Below, piece after piece: positions 1,133 through 59,770 of a DNA stretch of 64,000 bases (position 1 is its first letter; every line of letters starts with the position of its first letter). Source of the DNA: Solimonas sp. K1W22B-7. GTDB lineage: Bacteria > Pseudomonadota > Gammaproteobacteria > Nevskiales > Nevskiaceae. Under the pieces are notes generated by a model. It saw only the letters and a program-made list of their open reading frames with translations, searched no databases and was not told the origin of the DNA. The position numbers were made by a program, and so were the translations under genes. The DNA is taken from assembly GCF_003428335.1 (NCBI RefSeq), contig NZ_CP031704.1:4474071-4538070 (forward strand). Reading direction: 5' to 3'.

Positions 1133-1142
1133 TGCCCCCCTC

Positions 1143-1219
1143 CCGTAGGAGCGGCTGTCAGCCGCGATGGGCGGCGGCCATAGTGCCCGGCGCTCGCGGC
1201 TAACAGCCGCTCCTACGGG
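1143..1219. repeat. REPIN-like palindrome, family 1 (GTAGGAGCGGC...GCCGCTCCTAC, SMAG-like GTAG-terminated REP pair)
   Basis: Two inverted copies of GTAGGAGCGGCTGT(C/T)AGCCGCGA in an intergenic region. Same family recurs at 11693, 19541, 21566 and 47358. Confidence 0.6.
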
Positions 1220-10186: not shown

Positions 10187-10219
10187 GTGATACCCACATC
10201 TCGCAATTCTCCCAAAATT

Positions 10220-10966
10220 CTAGGGCCTTACAACAGTGAGCCTTTTCCCAAACATTGGGAATCGTTCTGCCAGGAGACTGCAAAAATCTTCTGTGACGAA
10301 GACAGAGATGACATCATCGTCTTTAAAAACATAGTTCCCAAATAGCCGCCATTCCCGTTCCATATAAACATTCTCTATTGCTTCATCTTCCACTTCCAAG
10401 GGGAAAGGCTTCACGAAGCTTAGTAGGTCTTTCTGGAAAATAGAATTTGCAGCAAAGATGGTTTCCTCCGCGTCAGGAGGATTCGACCCGACACGTCTGC
10501 TCCTCTTCTCCGTCAATCTTCGATGCTTACCATCTTCTCGGTTTAGCGCTTTTGCCACCACGGTAAGATCCTGCAGCAGAGCCCTTCCATTGGTCCCCCA
10601 ATGGTCGCCATCGAACGTGGGCACGTACAAAACTGGGCGCGCACCCTTCTCTGCTAACGATTTTTTATTGAAGGCTAACCCAAAGTACCCATACTTCTTA
10701 CAATGAACGACAGATAGTTCTTCGAATGGGATATCAGCGTAGCAAGTTACGGATGGAACAATAAAATCTTCCCTGCTAAGGCAACCGCCGCCATGAACGC
10801 TAAATTGAACGCCGCCTTGGACTCCTGCAGTTTCTCGACTGTAAGCCACCGTCCTGCTGGCAAGTATCGCGCATAGGGTTTCGAAGTTTCCCTGATGATC
10901 TAGAGGATTGCGAAATCCCACAAAGTGGCTCAGGTTCCGGGAAATGTAGCTTTGCTTTTTTTTCAT
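10220..10966 (-). CDS. AbiGi/DUF2971-like abortive-infection family protein (low-GC islet)
   Basis: Strong GC drop, AT-rich codons. N-terminal L..IL.S..V.YS motif, a VTCYADIPFEEL segment and a YGYFGLAFNKK...RPVLYV block resemble AbiGi/DUF2971 defence proteins. Start uncertain (10966, 11047 or TTG at 11095). Confidence 0.4.
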   Translation of the reverse strand: MKKKQSYISRNLSHFVGFRNPLDHQGNFETLCAILASRTVAYSRETAGVQGGVQFSVHGGGCLSREDFIVPSVTCYADIPFEELSVVHCKKYGYFGLAFNKKSLAEKGARPVLYVPTFDGDHWGTNGRALLQDLTVVAKALNREDGKHRRLTEKRSRRVGSNPPDAEETIFAANSIFQKDLLSFVKPFPLEVEDEAIENVYMEREWRLFGNYVFKDDDVISVFVTEDFCSLLAERFPMFGKRLTVVRP

Positions 10967-11081
10967 ATCATTTCGCAATACAACTACTCTGGTAGCCCAG
11001 ATTAATCGTGTAATGCAAAAGGGTACACTGCCGTGAGCAAGCTTCATGTGACCAGCATACAGGGTGGCCTGAATGCAACTA

Positions 11082-11167
11082 CGTAGGGTGGGCAAACGTC
11101 TTCATGTTTGCCCACGCGGTTGACGTTCCGACGCGTGGGCAAACGAAAAGACATTTGCCCACCCTAC
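11082..11167. repeat. Nested GTAG-terminated palindrome (four alternating TGGGCAAAC units)
   Basis: GTAGGGTGGGCAAACG...TTTGCCCACCCTAC outer inverted repeat with an inner inverted repeat. REPIN-like or bidirectional terminator bordering the low-GC gene. Confidence 0.45.
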
Positions 11168-11265
11168 GACCAGACAAGGACTAGCCGATAGCGCACCGGG
11201 CAATGGCGCCACTATCACGGTGGCAAAGTTTTGGGGCGCGACCCTGTAAGGCCGCGCCCGTCCCG

Positions 11266-11562
11266 CTAGTTGGTCTTCGGCACGTAGTACTCGTCCGGGC
11301 TCAGGACGCCATCGCCGTTATGGTCGCGCGTGGCGAAGCGCTTGTAGATCTGCGAGTCCGGCTTGACCTCGGACTTCTGCACCAGGCCGTCGCCGTTGGT
11401 GTCGGTCCACATGGCCTTGGTGGGCTCGCCCACTGCCGGTGCGCCGACCGTGGACGATCCTGGTGCGTCGAGCGAAGAGCCGGGCAAGGTGCCGACGCCG
11501 GCGAAGGGGGCGGTGGAGAAGAGGAATGCTGCCGCAGCGGTGCTGAAGGCCAACCGGTTCAT
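11266..11562 (-). CDS. Secreted EF-hand calcium-binding protein
   Basis: Signal peptide then two DxNGDGxV(S/Q) EF-hand loops. The 297-aa ORF-track product is an upstream artefact. Confidence 0.7.
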   Translation of the reverse strand: MNRLAFSTAAAAFLFSTAPFAGVGTLPGSSLDAPGSSTVGAPAVGEPTKAMWTDTNGDGLVQKSEVKPDSQIYKRFATRDHNGDGVLSPDEYYVPKTN

Positions 11563-11692
11563 GCTTGAACTCCCTGTGTGTATTGATGAAAACCGCAGGG
11601 AGACCGGAAAACGCGCGGGGAACCGGTTCCCGCGCGGCGTTGCGCACGGCACGGGGCCGCAGGGTAAAAGCAGCAGATTCCATGCCACGTAA

Positions 11693-11750
11693 CGGTAGGA
11701 GCGGCCGGTGGCCGCGACCTCGCCGGGTCGCGGCCACCGGCCGCTCCTAC
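11693..11750. repeat. REPIN, family 1
   Basis: GGTAGGAGCGGCCGGTGGCCGCGACC...GGTCGCGGCCACCGGCCGCTCCTAC. Confidence 0.55.
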
Positions 11751-19530: not shown

Positions 19531-19540
19531 GCTTTATCCC

Positions 19541-19610
19541 TGTGGGAGCGGCCTTGGCCGCGATCTTGGGCAAAAAACCAAAAGATCGCGGCTGAAGCCG
19601 CTCCCACGGG
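19541..19610. repeat. REPIN, family 1
   Basis: TGTGGGAGCGGCCTTGGCCGCGATCTT...AAGATCGCGGCTGAAGCCGCTCCCACGGG. Confidence 0.55.
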
Positions 19611-19658: not shown

Positions 19659-21560
19659 ATGCTGACCTTTGCCAACGCAACGCTGCGCCGCGGTTCGCGC
19701 ACCTTGCTCGAAAACCTCGCTTTCACGATCTATCCCGGCTATCGCGTGGGGGTGGTCGGCCGTAACGGCACCGGCAAGTCCAGCCTGTTCGCGATGCTGC
19801 TGGGCGAGCTGCAGCCGGACCTCGGCGACGTCTCGGTGCCGCGCAACCTGAGGATCGCCACCGTTGCCCAGGAAACCCCGGGGCTGTCGCAGTCGGCGCT
19901 GGATTTCGTGCTGGACGGCGACCAGGAGCTGCGCGCCACCGAGGCGGCGCTGACCAAGGCCGAGGAGGCCGAAGACCTCGACAAGCTGGCCGCGCTGCAC
20001 GACCGCATGGCGGCCATCGGCGGCTATGCCGCGCCGGCGCGCGCGGCCAAGCTGCTCGACGGCCTGGGCTTCGGCGCGGTGGAACAGGGCCAGGCGGTGG
20101 CGGACTTCTCGGGCGGCTGGCGCATGCGCCTGAACCTGGGGCGCGCGCTGATGTGCCGCTCCGACCTGCTGATGCTCGACGAGCCCACCAACCACCTCGA
20201 TCTCGACGCGGTGCTGTGGCTGCAGGACTGGCTGTCGACCTACCCCGGCACGCTGCTGGCGGTGTCGCATGACCGCGAGTTCCTCGACGCGGCCACCACC
20301 CACACCCTGCACCTGCAGGGCGGCGGCGCCACCCTGTACAGCGGCAACTACTCGCAGTTCGAGCGCATCCGCGCCGAACGCCTCGCGCAGCAGCAGAGCA
20401 CGCACGAGCAGCAGAAGCGCCAGGTGGCGCACCTGCAATCCTTCGTCGACCGCTTCAAGGCCGGCACCAAGGCGCGCCAGGCCCAGGCGCGCGTGAAGAT
20501 GATCGAGCGGATCAGCATGACGGCAGCGGTGGTGGCGGACCCGGAGTTCCAGTTCCGCTTCCCCAAGCCGGACCGCCTGCCCTCGCCGCTGATCCACTGC
20601 GACAAGGTGGCGGTGGGCTATGGCGACCGCACCGTGCTCAGCGGCGTGCGCAGCGGCCTGGAGCCGGGCGACCGCATCGGCCTGCTGGGCCCCAACGGCG
20701 CCGGCAAGTCCACCTTCGTGCGCCTGCTGGCCGGCGAACTGGACGCCCGCGCCGGCGCGCTGACGCGCTCGCCCTACCTGCGCGTGGGCTACTTCGCCCA
20801 GCACCAGGTGGAGCAGCTGGACATCAAGGCTTCGGCGATGCTGCATCTGCAGCGCCTGGCCCCGACGGCCAAGGAACAGGACCTGCGCGACTTCCTCGGC
20901 AGCTTCAATTTCCGCGGCGACCGCGCCTTCGAGGTGATCGAGCCGTTCTCGGGCGGCGAGAAGGCGCGCCTGGCCCTGGCCCTGGTGGTCTACGGCAAAC
21001 CCAACCTGCTGCTGCTCGACGAGCCCACCAACCATCTCGACCTGGACATGCGCCAGGCCCTGGAAATGGCCCTGCAGGAGTTCGCCGGCAGCGTAGTGCT
21101 GGTGTCGCATGACCGCCACCTGATCGCCGCGACCTGCGACGAGCTGTGGCGCGTGTCCGACGGCGAAGTGGCGTCCTTCGACGGCGACCTCGACGACTAC
21201 GCGCGCTGGCTGGGCCAGCGCCGCGCGGCGCAGGGCACCGGCAAGGTCGCCAAGGTGGCCAAGGCCACGGCCGAGGCCGCGATCCCGCAGGCGCCGAAGC
21301 GCCGGCCGGAAGAGCAGCGCGCGGTGGAGAAGCCCTTCCGCGAGACCATCCGCAACCTCGACGCGAAGATGGGCAAGCTGCAGCAGCGCCTCAAGGTGCT
21401 GGAGAACGAGCTGGCCGATCCGGCGATCTACGAGGCCGGGCAGCGCGGCAAGCTGCAGAAGCTGACGCAGGAACAGGCCGAGAAGCGCGCCGAGCTGGAA
21501 ACCAGCGAGGAGCAGTGGTTGGCGGCGTCGGAAGAACTCGAGAAACTACAGCAATATTGA
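19659..21560 (+). CDS. ABC-F family ATPase (YheS/Uup-like, two ABC domains)
   Basis: Two Walker A motifs (GRNGTGKS, GPNGAGKS), two LSGGE signatures, inter-domain linker and C-terminal coiled coil. Confidence 0.85.
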   Translation: MLTFANATLRRGSRTLLENLAFTIYPGYRVGVVGRNGTGKSSLFAMLLGELQPDLGDVSVPRNLRIATVAQETPGLSQSALDFVLDGDQELRATEAALTKAEEAEDLDKLAALHDRMAAIGGYAAPARAAKLLDGLGFGAVEQGQAVADFSGGWRMRLNLGRALMCRSDLLMLDEPTNHLDLDAVLWLQDWLSTYPGTLLAVSHDREFLDAATTHTLHLQGGGATLYSGNYSQFERIRAERLAQQQSTHEQQKRQVAHLQSFVDRFKAGTKARQAQARVKMIERISMTAAVVADPEFQFRFPKPDRLPSPLIHCDKVAVGYGDRTVLSGVRSGLEPGDRIGLLGPNGAGKSTFVRLLAGELDARAGALTRSPYLRVGYFAQHQVEQLDIKASAMLHLQRLAPTAKEQDLRDFLGSFNFRGDRAFEVIEPFSGGEKARLALALVVYGKPNLLLLDEPTNHLDLDMRQALEMALQEFAGSVVLVSHDRHLIAATCDELWRVSDGEVASFDGDLDDYARWLGQRRAAQGTGKVAKVAKATAEAAIPQAPKRRPEEQRAVEKPFRETIRNLDAKMGKLQQRLKVLENELADPAIYEAGQRGKLQKLTQEQAEKRAELETSEEQWLAASEELEKLQQY

Positions 21561-21565
21561 CGGAC

Positions 21566-21640
21566 TGTAGGAGCGGCCGTTGGCCGCGAAGGCCGGTCAT
21601 CATGGCAACCGGCGCTCGCGGCTAACAGCCGCTCCTACGA
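21566..21640. repeat. REPIN, family 1
   Basis: TGTAGGAGCGGCCGTTGGCCGCGAAG...GCTCGCGGCTAACAGCCGCTCCTACG. Confidence 0.55.
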
Positions 21641-44515: not shown

Positions 44516-47500
44516 ATGCAACAACACCTCCCCCTCGTCCGCGCCGGCCTCGCCGCGCAGGGCCCGATGGCCGGCCTGTTCCATGCGGCAGTGGCGGACT
44601 GGTTCACCGAGACTTTCGGCGCGCCCACCGAGGTACAGCAGCGCGCCTGGGAAGTGACCGCGCGCCACCGCGATGCCCTGATCGCCGCCCCCACCGGCTC
44701 CGGCAAGACCCTGGCGGCCTTCCTCGCCGCGATCAACGACCTGGTGATCGAAGGCATCCAGAACGGCCTGGCCGACGAAGTGCAGGTGCTTTACATCTCG
44801 CCGCTGAAGGCCCTGTCCAACGACATCCAGAAGAACCTGCAGGCGCCGCTGGAGGGCATCCGCCAGCGTGTCCGCGCCATGGGCCTGGGCGAGCTGTCGA
44901 TCCGCGACGCGGTGCGCACCGGCGACACCCCGACCTTCGAGCGCGAGCGCCAGCGCCGCGCGCCGCCGCACATCCTGGTGACCACGCCGGAGTCGCTGTT
45001 CATCCTGCTGTCCTCCGATTCCGGCCGCGACATGCTGCGCAAGGTGCGCAGCGTGATCGTCGACGAACTGCACGCCATGGCCGGCTCCAAGCGCGGCGCT
45101 CACCTGGCGTTGTCGCTGGAACGGCTCGACGCACTCTGCGGCAAGCCGCCGGTACGCATCGGCCTGTCGGCCACGCAAAAACCGGTGGAGACCATGGCCC
45201 GGCTGCTGGTCGGTGACTCCGGCCGCGCCTGCGAGATCATCGACACTGGCCACGTGCGCAAGCGCGACCTGGCGCTGGAAGTGCCGCTGTCGCCGCTGAC
45301 TTCGGTGATGTCCAACGAAGTCTGGGGCGAAATCTACGACCGTCTCGCCGAACTGACAAAGGCACACCGCACCACGCTGATCTTCGTCAACCAGCGCCGC
45401 ATGGCCGAGCGCCTGGCGCGCCACCTGGCCGAGCGCATCGGCGAGGAGCACGTCACCGCGCATCACGGCAGCTTGGCCAAGGAGCACCGCCTCAAGGCCG
45501 AACAGCGCCTCAAGGCCGGGCAGCTCAAGGCCCTGGTCGCCACCGCCTCGCTGGAGCTGGGCATCGACATCGGCGACGTCGACCTGGTCTGCCAGATCGG
45601 TTCGCCGCGCTCGATCAACGCCTTCCTGCAGCGCGTCGGCCGTTCCGGCCACGCCGTGCGCGCCACGCCCAAGGGCCGGCTGTTCCCGGTGTCGCTGGAC
45701 GACCTCGCCGAGTCGGTCGCGCTGCTCGACAGCGTGCAGCAGGGCGAGCTGGACCGCGTCTGCGTATTCCAGCAGCCGATGGACGTGCTGGCACAGCAGA
45801 TCGTCGCCGAGGTGGCCTGTCGCGAGTGGGGCCTGGAGGAACTCCATGCGCGCTTCCGCCGCGCCCTGCCCTACTGCGCGCTGACACTGGCCGCCTTCGA
45901 GGAACTGGTGCAGATGCTGGCCGACGGCTACAGCACGCGCCGCGGCCGTCGTGGCGCGCTGCTGCACTACGACGTGGTCAACCGCATGCTGCGCGGCCGC
46001 CGCGGCGCCAAGCTCACCGCCGTGACCAATGCCGGCGTCATCCCCGACCAGTTCGACTACGAGGTGGAGCTGTCGCCCGAGGGCCTGCGCGTCGGCACGC
46101 TCAACGAGGACTTCGCCTTCGAGAGCGTGCCGGGCGACATCGTGCAGCTCGGCAACACCTCCTACCGCATCCTGAAAGTGGAGACCGGCCGCGTCATCGT
46201 CGAGGACGCGCACGGCCAGCCGCCGAGCCTGCCGTTCTGGCTCGGCGAGGGCCTGGGCCGCAGCGAGGAGCTGTCGCTGGCGGTGTCGCGACTGCGGGCG
46301 CGGGCCGATCAGCTGCTTGGCGAGCACAGCGTCGAGGCCTGCCGCGACTGGCTGGTGCGCGACTACGGCCTCAGCGCCGCCGCGGCGCTGCAGCTGGCCA
46401 ACTACTATGCCGCCGCGCGCATCGCCCTGGGCCTGCTGCCGACACGCGATCGCATCGTCTTCGAGCGCTTCTTCGACGAGGTCGGCGACACTCACCTGGT
46501 GATCCACGCACCGCTGGGTTCACGGATCATGCGCGCCTGGGGCCTGGCGCTGCGCAAGAGCTTCTGCCGCCAGTTCAACTTCGAGCTGCAGGCGGCGGCG
46601 CTGGACGATTCGCTGGTGCTGTCGCTGGGGCCCACGCACAGCTTCCCGCTGGAAGACGTGAAGGGCTTCCTGCACGCCAACACCGCGGAGGAGAAACTGG
46701 TGCAGGCGGTGCTGCAGGCACCGATGTTCGGCACGCGCTGGCGCTGGGCCGCCAGCACCGCGCTGGCGGTGGCGCGCAACCGCAATGGCAAGCGCGTGCC
46801 GCCGCAGTTCCAGCGCAGCGATGCCGAGGACCTGCTGACCCACGCCTTCCCCGACGCCGTCGCCTGCCAGGACAACCTGCCGGGCGACCGCGAGATGCCG
46901 GATCACCCGCTGGTGCAGCAGGCCATGCACGACTGCCTGCATGAGGTCATGGACGTGGACGGCATGGTGGCGCTGCTGCGGCGCATCGAGACCGGCACGG
47001 TGGAGGTGGTCTGCCGCGACCTCACCGCACCCTCGCCGCTATCCGAGTCGATCATCAACGCCAAGCCCTACGCCTTCCTTGACGACGGCGCCGCCGAGGA
47101 ACGGCGCACGCTGGCGGTGAAGACCCGCGGCGTCTACGAACCCGAGACCGCCGCCGACCTCGGCCGCCTCGATCCTGCGGCGATCGAGCAGGTGCGCGGC
47201 GAAATGCGTCCCTCGGCGATCAATGCCGACGAACTGCATGACGCGCTGCTGGTGCATGGTTTCCTGACCGATGCCGAGGCGAGCGACATGGGCGCCGCCG
47301 GCTGGCTGGATGAATTGATGAGCCAGCGGCGCGTGGCGAAGCTGAGACTGGATTCCCGCGGGAGCGGCTTCAGCCGCGATGCGGAGTCCATCGCGGCTGA
47401 AGCCGCTCCCACAAAAGAACAGCTTCTCTGGGCCTGCGCCGAGCGCCTGCCCGAGCTGCGCGCCGTATTGCCGCAGGCCCGCGTCGAAGGCGACGCTCCG

Positions 47501-48901
47501 GCACTATCCGCACCACCCGACGCCGACCAGGCCCTGCGCGAACTCACCCGCAGCCGCCTGGAAGCCGTCGGCCCCGTCACCGCCGCCGAACTCGGCGCAC
47601 CGCTGGGCCTCTCCGCCGGCGGCATGGCGATCCCGCTGGCGGCGCTGGAGGCCGAGGGCTACGTCATGCGCGGCGACTTCACCGGCGCCGGAGAAGTGGA
47701 ATGGTGCGAACGCCGCCGCCTGGCGCGCATCCATCGCCACACCCGCGACAAGCGCCGCGCCGAAATCCAGCCGGTGTCGCCGGCGGCCTTCATGCGCTTC
47801 CTGTTCGACTGGCAGGGCCTGGCCGGCGGCGAACCGCGCGAAGGCGCGCCGGCACTGGGCCTGGTGCTGAACCAGCTCGAGGGTTTTCCGGTCGCCGCGA
47901 GCGCCTGGGAATCGGAGATCCTGCCGTCGCGCCTGCGCCACTACGAGGCCGGCTGGCTCGACCAGCTCTGCGCCACCGGCCGCAGCATCTGGCAGCGCCT
48001 GCCCAGCGGCGAAGGCGGCCGCAAGGCGGCGCCGGTGCGCGCCACGCCGATCGTGCTGCTGCCGCGCGAGCAGGCGGCCCACTGGCAGGCCGCGGCCGAT
48101 GACGATCCCGACCTCTCCGGCGCCGCCTTCGCGGTGCTGGAGACGCTGCGCGCTCACGGCGCGTCCTTCTTCGTCGAACTGGTCGCCGACTCCGGCCAGT
48201 TGCGCAGCCAGGTGGAGCAGGCCTTGGGCGAGCTGGTCAGCCATGGCCTGGTCACCTCGGACGGCTTCGCCGGCCTGCGCGCACTGATTGCGCCGGCCGA
48301 GATGAAGGCACGGCGCCTGCGCCGCGGCGGCTTGCAGGCCGCCTGCGCCAACCTCGAAGGCGCCGGCCGCTGGTCGCTGGTGCGCCCGCGCCGTGCGGCG
48401 GAGACACCGGAGCCCGCCGCGCGCACCGAGCACATCGCACGCGTGCTGCTGCGCCGCTACGGCGTGGTGTTCCGCAAGCTGCTGGAGCGCGAGCCCGCGC
48501 TGCCGCCCTGGCGCGAGATCTTCTACGTGCTGCGCCGCCTGGAAGCGCGCGGCGAGGTGCGCGGCGGCCGTTTCGTCAGCGGTTTCTCCGGCGAGCAGTT
48601 CGCGCTGCCCGAGGCCGCCGGCAGCCTGCGCCGTCACCGCGAGGACGCCGACGCCGCACTGGTCGCCGTCTCCGGCTGCGATCCGCTGAACCTCACCGGC
48701 ATCATCGTGCCGGGCGAGCGCGTGCCGGCCACGCCAGGCAACCGCGTGCTGTTCCGCGGCGGCGTGCCGGTGGCCTGCCGCATCGGCGGCGAGACACGCT
48801 ACCTGGTGCAGGGCGACATCGCGGTGCAAGGCGAGTGGAAACATCGCCTGGTGCGCCGCGCCAGCCGTGGCGGCGACGCGCCTATGGCTGCGGGGCAGTG
48901 A
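44516..48901 (+). CDS. lhr: Lhr-family large ATP-dependent helicase
   Basis: DEAD/DEAH core (APTGSGKTLAAFL, DELH, SAT, QRVGRSGH) plus the long Lhr C-terminal extension; 1461 aa. Confidence 0.85.
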   Translation: MQQHLPLVRAGLAAQGPMAGLFHAAVADWFTETFGAPTEVQQRAWEVTARHRDALIAAPTGSGKTLAAFLAAINDLVIEGIQNGLADEVQVLYISPLKALSNDIQKNLQAPLEGIRQRVRAMGLGELSIRDAVRTGDTPTFERERQRRAPPHILVTTPESLFILLSSDSGRDMLRKVRSVIVDELHAMAGSKRGAHLALSLERLDALCGKPPVRIGLSATQKPVETMARLLVGDSGRACEIIDTGHVRKRDLALEVPLSPLTSVMSNEVWGEIYDRLAELTKAHRTTLIFVNQRRMAERLARHLAERIGEEHVTAHHGSLAKEHRLKAEQRLKAGQLKALVATASLELGIDIGDVDLVCQIGSPRSINAFLQRVGRSGHAVRATPKGRLFPVSLDDLAESVALLDSVQQGELDRVCVFQQPMDVLAQQIVAEVACREWGLEELHARFRRALPYCALTLAAFEELVQMLADGYSTRRGRRGALLHYDVVNRMLRGRRGAKLTAVTNAGVIPDQFDYEVELSPEGLRVGTLNEDFAFESVPGDIVQLGNTSYRILKVETGRVIVEDAHGQPPSLPFWLGEGLGRSEELSLAVSRLRARADQLLGEHSVEACRDWLVRDYGLSAAAALQLANYYAAARIALGLLPTRDRIVFERFFDEVGDTHLVIHAPLGSRIMRAWGLALRKSFCRQFNFELQAAALDDSLVLSLGPTHSFPLEDVKGFLHANTAEEKLVQAVLQAPMFGTRWRWAASTALAVARNRNGKRVPPQFQRSDAEDLLTHAFPDAVACQDNLPGDREMPDHPLVQQAMHDCLHEVMDVDGMVALLRRIETGTVEVVCRDLTAPSPLSESIINAKPYAFLDDGAAEERRTLAVKTRGVYEPETAADLGRLDPAAIEQVRGEMRPSAINADELHDALLVHGFLTDAEASDMGAAGWLDELMSQRRVAKLRLDSRGSGFSRDAESIAAEAAPTKEQLLWACAERLPELRAVLPQARVEGDAPALSAPPDADQALRELTRSRLEAVGPVTAAELGAPLGLSAGGMAIPLAALEAEGYVMRGDFTGAGEVEWCERRRLARIHRHTRDKRRAEIQPVSPAAFMRFLFDWQGLAGGEPREGAPALGLVLNQLEGFPVAASAWESEILPSRLRHYEAGWLDQLCATGRSIWQRLPSGEGGRKAAPVRATPIVLLPREQAAHWQAAADDDPDLSGAAFAVLETLRAHGASFFVELVADSGQLRSQVEQALGELVSHGLVTSDGFAGLRALIAPAEMKARRLRRGGLQAACANLEGAGRWSLVRPRRAAETPEPAARTEHIARVLLRRYGVVFRKLLEREPALPPWREIFYVLRRLEARGEVRGGRFVSGFSGEQFALPEAAGSLRRHREDADAALVAVSGCDPLNLTGIIVPGERVPATPGNRVLFRGGVPVACRIGGETRYLVQGDIAVQGEWKHRLVRRASRGGDAPMAAGQ
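47358..47410. repeat. Family-1 REPIN palindrome embedded in-frame inside the lhr CDS
   Basis: CGGGAGCGGCTTCAGCCGCGATgcggagtccATCGCGGCTGAAGCCGCTCCCAC translated as ...SRGSGFSRDAESIAAEAAPT... within the Lhr ORF. Confidence 0.55.
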
Positions 48902-59615: not shown

Positions 59616-59689
59616 CGGAGGACTCCGCGCGGACGACCAGCCGATGCTAGCAGCCAACCGGCATCCAGTCCCCCTGGCAAAGATTTTCG

Positions 59690-59770
59690 GTCCGCAAATG
59701 GACGCAAATAAACGCGAATGGAAGCGTGCGGATTTGCGTTTATTTGCGTTTATTTGCGGACTGAAGTTTT
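59690..59770. promoter_or_regulatory. AT-rich composite palindrome with tandem GCGTTTATTTGC units
   Basis: GTCCGCAAATGGACGCAAATAAACGC...TGCGTTTATTTGCGTTTATTTGCGGAC. Lies downstream of the diiron-oxygenase operon and upstream of the lipoprotein gene. Confidence 0.35.

Follow-up and report, generated by a model that had tools for sequence, protein, structure and literature searches.

REP doublets forming hairpins (REPINs) have been described as pairs of inverted repetitive extragenic palindromic (REP) units that are separated by a short spacer, form one long hairpin and occur as multiple dispersed extragenic copies mobilized by REP-associated tyrosine transposases (RAYTs) (Bertels & Rainey 2011, PLoS Genet 7:e1002132; PMC3116915). 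A doublet of the same architecture is present in a 64,000-nucleotide stretch of Solimonas sp. K1W22B-7 (contig NZ_CP031704.1; hereafter, the window), where it belongs to a family that likewise has multiple dispersed copies and sub-families differing in the unit loop (N4 versus N5). In contrast to the described REPINs, the window copy is translated, lying in-frame within the helicase gene lhr, and no RAYT motif was detected in the 64-kb window. Mobilization by a RAYT-type single-strand transposase would be expected from the literature on these elements.

Intragenic REPs have precedents. In the passages covered here, the survey of Di Nocera, De Gregorio & Rocco (2013, BMC Genomics 14:522; PMC3733652) reports GTAG- and CGTC-tagged REPs within genes, describes intragenic dimers that encode 20–30 residues in hosts that are often DNA-repair or replication genes, and suggests that the insertions may occupy flexible linkers or loops. 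Its Additional file 3 gives GSGFSRDAGG... for P. mendocina and RSGFSRDEGS... for P. entomophila as translations of GTAG-1 dimers; the window element is also a tagged inverted dimer inside a long open reading frame (ORF), and encodes the same peptide (RGSGFSRD). An earlier note on this DNA correctly regarded REPs as normally extragenic, but the survey already contains GTAG REP dimers that are read in-frame, and the window element is a further example of a catalogued class. It differs from the surveyed cases in that Lhr is not among the hosts in the passages covered, Solimonas lies outside the survey, and the window insert can be traced across speciation. The one same-site recurrence reported there concerns recB in two species of Xanthomonas, as compared to at least nine lineages for a single Lhr loop here. 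Rickettsia palindromic elements (RPEs; Ogata et al. 2000, as cited in PMC3733652) are similarly in-frame palindromic repeats that leave the gene functional and place their peptide at a tolerated position, but they are longer and AT-rich, reside in an obligate intracellular alphaproteobacterium and have no sequence relationship to the element described here. Literature searches combining Lhr and REP gave no relevant result, and we came across neither the recurrent Lhr hot spots nor the dated persistence reported below in the literature that could be searched.

The reading favored here, with a probability of about 0.78, is that the element is an old in-frame REPIN in the wing of the Lhr winged-helix module WH2, later lost in one sub-clade and otherwise carried as a tolerated passenger, with no new functional module created. 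The element is an inverted repeat with arms of 22 nt (47360–47381 and 47389–47410) that are complementary at 22/22 positions across a 7-nt spacer, enabling two closely spaced inverted units to form one hairpin. With its tag bases it spans 47358–47412 in the order GCGG-GAGCGGCTTCAGCCGCGATG / CGGAGTC / CATCGCGGCTGAAGCCGCTC-CCAC. The palindrome reported earlier is therefore real, although its 21-nt arms lie 9 nt apart rather than 11. The units follow the layout GT(G)G-GAGCGGC-TTCA-GCCGC-GAT; the right unit carries the tag GTGG and the left a decayed GCGG, while the remaining window copies are tagged GTAG or GTGG. Four matches to the 21-mer are found in the window at up to three mismatches (0.01 expected), and the family core GGAGCGGC-N4-5-GCCGC matches 10 times, as five inverted doublets, against an expectation of 0.10. 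Four of the five doublets lie between ORFs, consistent within the 64-kb window with a dispersed, mostly extragenic family; two have perfect arms and three have arms that are 86–88% complementary. The element thus belongs, as a REP doublet (REPIN), to the GT(A/G)G-tagged family of the host. Chance palindromy fails on the same count of 10 matches versus 0.10 expected, and we give next to no credence to a chance palindrome or an assembly artefact: no point in its support was found, the same element occupies the same site in independent assemblies, and the reading frame remains intact with conserved domains downstream.

The host gene encodes a full-length Lhr-type superfamily 2 (SF2) DNA helicase comprising RecA modules, a winged helix, DEAD_assoc and a winged-helix C-terminal domain. 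Pfam matches above curated cut-offs comprise DEAD, Helicase_C, WH_Lhr and DEAD_assoc (aa 641–843) before the insert and WH3_Lhr (aa 1087–1160) and WH4_Lhr (aa 1298–1380) after it, and the protein aligns with M. smegmatis Lhr (MsmLhr) structures 7LHL (E = 3e-187; aa 314–1395) and 5V9X (E = 6e-154). As had been stated previously, the doublet lies entirely within the 1461-codon ORF and keeps its frame, encoding the peptide RGSGFSRDAESIAAEAAP (aa 948–965). No other contig on record encodes the exact window Lhr protein, and hence a second assembly of this strain does not exist among the records.

To compare orthologs, one genome per species was scanned, yielding 80 lhr loci (given L numbers below) and, with the window, 81 sequences, the closest of which are from Solimonas. 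Three of these (L001, L003 and L004), which are 91–92% identical to the window across Lhr, lack exactly 63 nt at the element in both protein and DNA alignments, reading KL-LHRDDV-LW at the empty site as compared to KL-RLDSRGSGFSRDAESIAAEAAPTKEQL-LW in the window. In this set of 81, the distance between MSQRR and AERLPEL, both included, is usually 26–27 residues, corresponding to a loop of 6–7 residues, and an insert of at least 10 aa at this loop is present in 11 and absent from 70. The alignments thus identify the REP doublet in the window lhr as a genuine insertion relative to empty sites, a translated dimer in-frame within a conserved ORF and missing from orthologs. The expectation that approximately 18–25 residues would be uniquely inserted here was borne out in size (63 nt, ∼21 residues), but not in uniqueness, as the insert is also present in Solimonas fluminis (L002) and in a metagenome contig (L081). 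The empty-site sequence AAGCTGCTGCATCGCGACGA of L001, L003 and L004, corresponding to window positions 47345–47425, contains CATCGCG, which is also found at the junction of the repeat's loop and right arm; this 7-nt string may be a deletion scar or a chance match, is too short to tell which, and is not used as evidence.

The structural position of the insert was predicted with an AlphaFold2 model of aa 861–1100, built from a 77-sequence alignment in which the homologues of this segment were fragments of no more than 50% identity and no Solimonas proteins were included (mean predicted local distance difference test score [pLDDT] 88). In segment numbering, the model runs through helices 44–54, 59–64 and 68–76, with strand 56–58 following the first of these, then strand 80–85, the insert and strand 109–114. 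The insert has pLDDT values of 50–70, as compared to values above 90 around it and of 95–98 on either side. The best Protein Data Bank match of the model is 7LHL, the C-terminal domain of MsmLhr, and the sequence alignment with MsmLhr resumes at residue 965, directly after the insert. In this model, the extra residues form the wing loop of a winged helix, predicted to be a surface loop between two β strands; the earlier suggestion of a permissive surface loop, which was to be checked by structural mapping, agrees with it. In the naming of Warren et al. 2021 (PMC8053096), the Lhr C-terminal domain comprises five winged helices, of which this module, WH2, comes first. MsmLhr shares the arrangement of an Lhr-Core followed by a C-terminal domain of tandem winged helices, but has no extra segment at the WH2 wing; the disordered loops of 7LHL (aa 1046–1052 and 1251–1276) lie elsewhere, and the tetramer contact residues named in PMC8053096 appear to exclude the WH2 wing.

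Constraint on lhr was examined by comparison with L002, from which the window gene differs at a proportion of synonymous sites (pS) of 0.27. The ratio of nonsynonymous to synonymous divergence (dN/dS) is 0.16 for aa 1–937 and 0.19 for aa 975–1461, and lhr is therefore under purifying selection on either side of the insert. Of the five positions at which the repeat differs between the window and L002, three are non-synonymous (S/G, A/S and P/S), and so the encoded peptide is not conserved; its neutrality appears likely. The interval from the end of Lhr-Core to WH3 (aa 850–1070) is the most divergent part of lhr in comparisons of the window with L001–L004, with 0.16–0.20 nucleotide differences per site versus 0.06–0.13 in the rest of the gene, or about twofold. 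A previous description of the insertion site as a poorly conserved C-terminal extension is accordingly correct as to local divergence, but the C-terminal domain itself is under purifying selection (dN/dS 0.19). In the C-terminal third of lhr, the distances separating the window, L002 and L001 from one another become star-like, which hints at mosaic ancestry.

The age of the insertion was assessed from its distribution among relatives. L002 and L081, whose assemblies are 9% diverged from the window in Lhr protein, carry the same element at the same lhr position. All three share an atypical left end, CGCGGGAGC, in place of the GTAG or GTGG of other copies, as well as a 12-nt spacing from AAGCTG and the reading frame, and the right flanks of the window (ACAAAAGAA) and L081 (GCAAAAGAC) are related. 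The palindromes of L002 and L081 are partly decayed, with L002 differing from the window at 5/51 positions, four of them in the arms. These shared features indicate, from sequence comparison, that the three inserts have a common ancestry. In Solimonas terrae (L005; 76% Lhr identity), a segment at the same site aligns with the window insert, including the flank AAA-ACAGCT, with a score of 25 as compared to 8.4 ± 4.2 for shuffles (1/500 shuffles reached 25), and is probably an older remnant of the insertion. Recent RAYT-mediated mobility specific to this genome, as proposed in the earlier note, would account for the young look of an element with perfect arms that are identical to another window copy, in a family where two of five window doublets are perfect and the other three are 86–88% complementary. 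However, two other assemblies at 9% Lhr protein divergence and pS = 0.27 carry this insertion with identical junction peculiarities, a probable remnant exists in S. terrae, and no RAYT motif is found in the 64-kb window; recency is thus contradicted, and a recent insertion is very improbable.

The Lhr tree has the form (window,(L002,(L001,L003,L004))) with bootstrap 100. Because the empty-site clade is nested within carriers, the distribution is most simply explained by one old insertion followed by deletion in the ancestor of L001, L003 and L004. Recombination as a source of the shared insert was rejected, since sliding-window distances reveal no local affinity between the window and L002. 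Alternatively, REPINs might have inserted independently into a hot-spot loop in the lineages of the window, S. fluminis and S. terrae, with neither shared ancestry nor deletion. The same or a related REP core is indeed held at this site by distant lineages (L037, L099/L112 and L129; see below), and the deletion in L001, L003 and L004 would no longer be needed. Yet the window, L002 and L081 share the GCGG tag, the 12-nt AAGCTG spacing, the frame and a related right flank, whereas the independent cases have other loop lengths and other junctions, such that independent insertion seems improbable.

According to the favored history, a REP doublet would have inserted in-frame into the β-hairpin loop of the WH2 wing before the window and S. 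fluminis lineages split, probably before the split from S. terrae, and would later have been deleted in the L001/L003/L004 sub-clade. The insert would persist because its length is divisible by three, one of the repeat's two stop-free frames is used, and a solvent-exposed loop is lengthened by about 21 low-complexity residues with the fold undisturbed. The locus offers a clean, dated case of a REPIN that has stayed translated within a functioning DNA-repair helicase across one speciation event or more, showing that REPINs can supply peptide segments to proteins of free-living Gammaproteobacteria as RPEs do in Rickettsia, and it could serve as a system for measuring the decay rate of an immobilized REPIN.

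Several observations weigh against this account. The deletion in the L001/L003/L004 clade is deduced from the tree rather than observed, and the exact family pattern has no extragenic copies in the flanks of L001–L005. A six-frame search with a regular expression for the RAYT C-terminal motif (NPxxxGLV-type) found none in the 64-kb window, within which a single-copy gene would be unlikely to fall. In addition, the window branch has accumulated no change in 44 arm bases since the split from L002, where about 7 would be expected at the synonymous rate (P about 7e-4), and a purely neutral passenger leaves the perfect 22/22 palindrome unexplained.

Active maintenance of the palindrome in the window lineage, through selection on a DNA or RNA hairpin, arm-to-arm repair or conversion from other copies, would account for this perfection. 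Over the entire repeat, the window and L002 differ at 5/51 positions where about 14 differences would be expected at the synonymous rate (P = 0.002), while the linkers beside it are much more diverged (5/12 on the left). The arms match the extragenic unit at 19585–19605, two arm changes common to L002 and L081 (A to G and C to T) would retain G–U pairing in the sense RNA, and the predicted RNA fold of the element region is very stable (−56.6 kcal/mol; z = −7.2 versus shuffles). Selection would act on the hairpin in the lhr transcript, where it could, e.g., block an RNase or exonuclease or serve as a binding site. On the other hand, L002 and L081 have broken palindromes, and L001, L003 and L004 have lost the whole element while retaining the gene. 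Measured against the local all-site divergence of 0.19–0.20, the deficit of 5/51 is marginal (P estimated at about 0.06), and the counts are tiny. No intrinsic terminator (GC-rich hairpin plus T run) was found on either strand of 46800–48000, the hairpin being followed by ACAAAAGAAC; a scan around the element found no promoter-like site, and Rfam 15 returned no family at gathering threshold, only generic hairpin matches of 16–34 bits against thresholds of 37–150. Maintenance is on balance unlikely.

Insertion at the WH2 wing is recurrent. Including Solimonas, at least nine lineages carry insertions of at least six repeat families at this loop, and their nearer relatives have a short loop. L037 contains a GTAGGAAGCGGCTTCAGCCGCGAT doublet with perfect 22-nt arms, and its unit recurs at L037:8500-8528; a single unit with the same core is present in each of L099 and L112, and L129 has a perfect doublet of GTGGGAGGGGTTTCAGCCCCGAC. 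Other inserts consist of GTAGAGCGGAGCTTGCTCCGC in L019, CCCTCCCCTTCAAGGGGAGGGTTGG... in L008 and L092 (with a 43/43 copy elsewhere in L008), repeats of the GGGGAGAGG...GGGGTGAGGG type in L006, L027 and L050, and a doublet of GTCATTCCCGCGAACGCGGGGATC in L109. The wing, at ∼aa 946, is one of three repeatedly hit Lhr loops, the others being the RecA1/RecA2 junction (∼aa 235) and the core C-domain (∼aa 604). At the RecA1/RecA2 junction, in-frame perfect palindromes are present in three uncultured proteobacteria (Table 1). The ∼aa 604 site holds inserts in 20/81 Lhr sequences, among them doublets translated as CRSELARE...FASKLAPT. In the Stutzerimonas/Pseudomonas genes L080, L048, L029 and L042, in-frame repeated units at this site are translated as HPSPLPGGERG...SPSPLGGEGRGEG and add 60 to 246 residues, their size varying among Stutzerimonas stutzeri genomes, one of which has a 246-residue insert of repeated units. 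L037, an uncultured gammaproteobacterial lhr, combines two in-frame REP doublets with perfect 22–23-nt arms, one at ∼aa 604 (L037:5281-5396) and one at the WH2 wing (L037:6435-6504).

Perfect palindromes with stems of at least 16 nt number nine in lhr (351 kb in total), all at the three loop sites, as compared to at most two within long ORFs of 590 kb of flanking DNA, a rough control in which two raw matches upstream of the true start codon were discounted. Because different repeat families, which presumably use different transposases, occupy the same loops, a selection filter acting on permissive loops would explain the recurrence better than a shared target sequence. That some mechanism instead makes lhr a favored site for REP-type palindromes to land or be retained, with the hairpin kept as a cis-acting DNA or RNA element, is quite unlikely; if true, the kept hairpin would sit in the mRNA encoding a helicase whose own substrates are RNA:DNA and DNA duplexes. 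The hot-spot pattern, with palindromes several-fold denser in lhr than in neighboring coding DNA, is a more useful lead than the single case. It lends support to the concentration of intragenic REPs in DNA-repair genes, which had been observed earlier and left unexplained, and the three loops provide a natural map of insertion-tolerant Lhr sites, e.g., for protein tagging.

Table 1. Positions of the lhr element, its host gene, related doublets of the window and palindromes at a second Lhr loop (L-numbered positions refer to the respective locus)
Feature	Position	Strand	Details
Left REP unit, GCGG-GAGCGGCTTCAGCCGCGATG	47358..47381	+	tag decayed from GT(A/G)G to GCGG
Doublet loop, CGGAGTC	47382..47388	+	7 nt
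Right REP unit, inverted	47389..47412	-	GTGG-GAGCGGCTTCAGCCGCGATG on the - strand; matches extragenic unit 19585-19605 at 21/21 positions
lhr, Lhr-type SF2 DNA helicase	44516..48901	+	1461 codons; Lhr-Core and C-terminal winged-helix domain
Expanded wing loop, WH2 module	47345..47425	+	aa 944-970; 27 residues vs 6 in empty-site orthologs; net +63 nt
Closest extragenic doublet, same sub-family, GTGGGAGCGGC-N4-GCCGCGAT	19539..19610		between two convergently ordered + strand ORFs
Extragenic doublet, N5 sub-family, GTAGGAGCGGC-N5-GCCGCGA	1142..1219		
Extragenic doublet	11695..11750		arms 25/25 perfect
Extragenic doublet	21567..21638		just past ORF 19659..21560
Perfect palindrome at ∼aa 235	L009:1694-1834		53-nt stem
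Perfect palindrome at ∼aa 235	L012:4205-4306		36-nt stem
Perfect palindrome at ∼aa 235	L018:4201-4304		29-nt stem

Further palindromic features were observed elsewhere in the window. A second, unrelated doublet of the CGTAGGGTGGGCAAACG...CGTTTGCCCACCCTACG type (11082–11168), with 37-nt arms that are 89% complementary, lies about 530 nt from the family doublet at 11695–11750 and probably represents another REP family of this genome. The 527-nt gap between them (11168–11695) contains a small EF-hand-like ORF and no RAYT. The same palindrome borders a low-GC island at 10200–11100 (47–50% versus about 65% around it), which contains a 291-aa ORF on the - strand (10220..11095) and appears horizontally acquired. 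Finally, an AT-richer inverted repeat at 59686–59765 (GCAAATGGACGCAAATAAACGCGAAT ... ATTTGCGTTTATTTGCGTTTATTTGCGGAC), with 34-nt arms that are 88% complementary and repeated TTTGCG/CGCAAA motifs, resembles a protein-binding or origin-like site.

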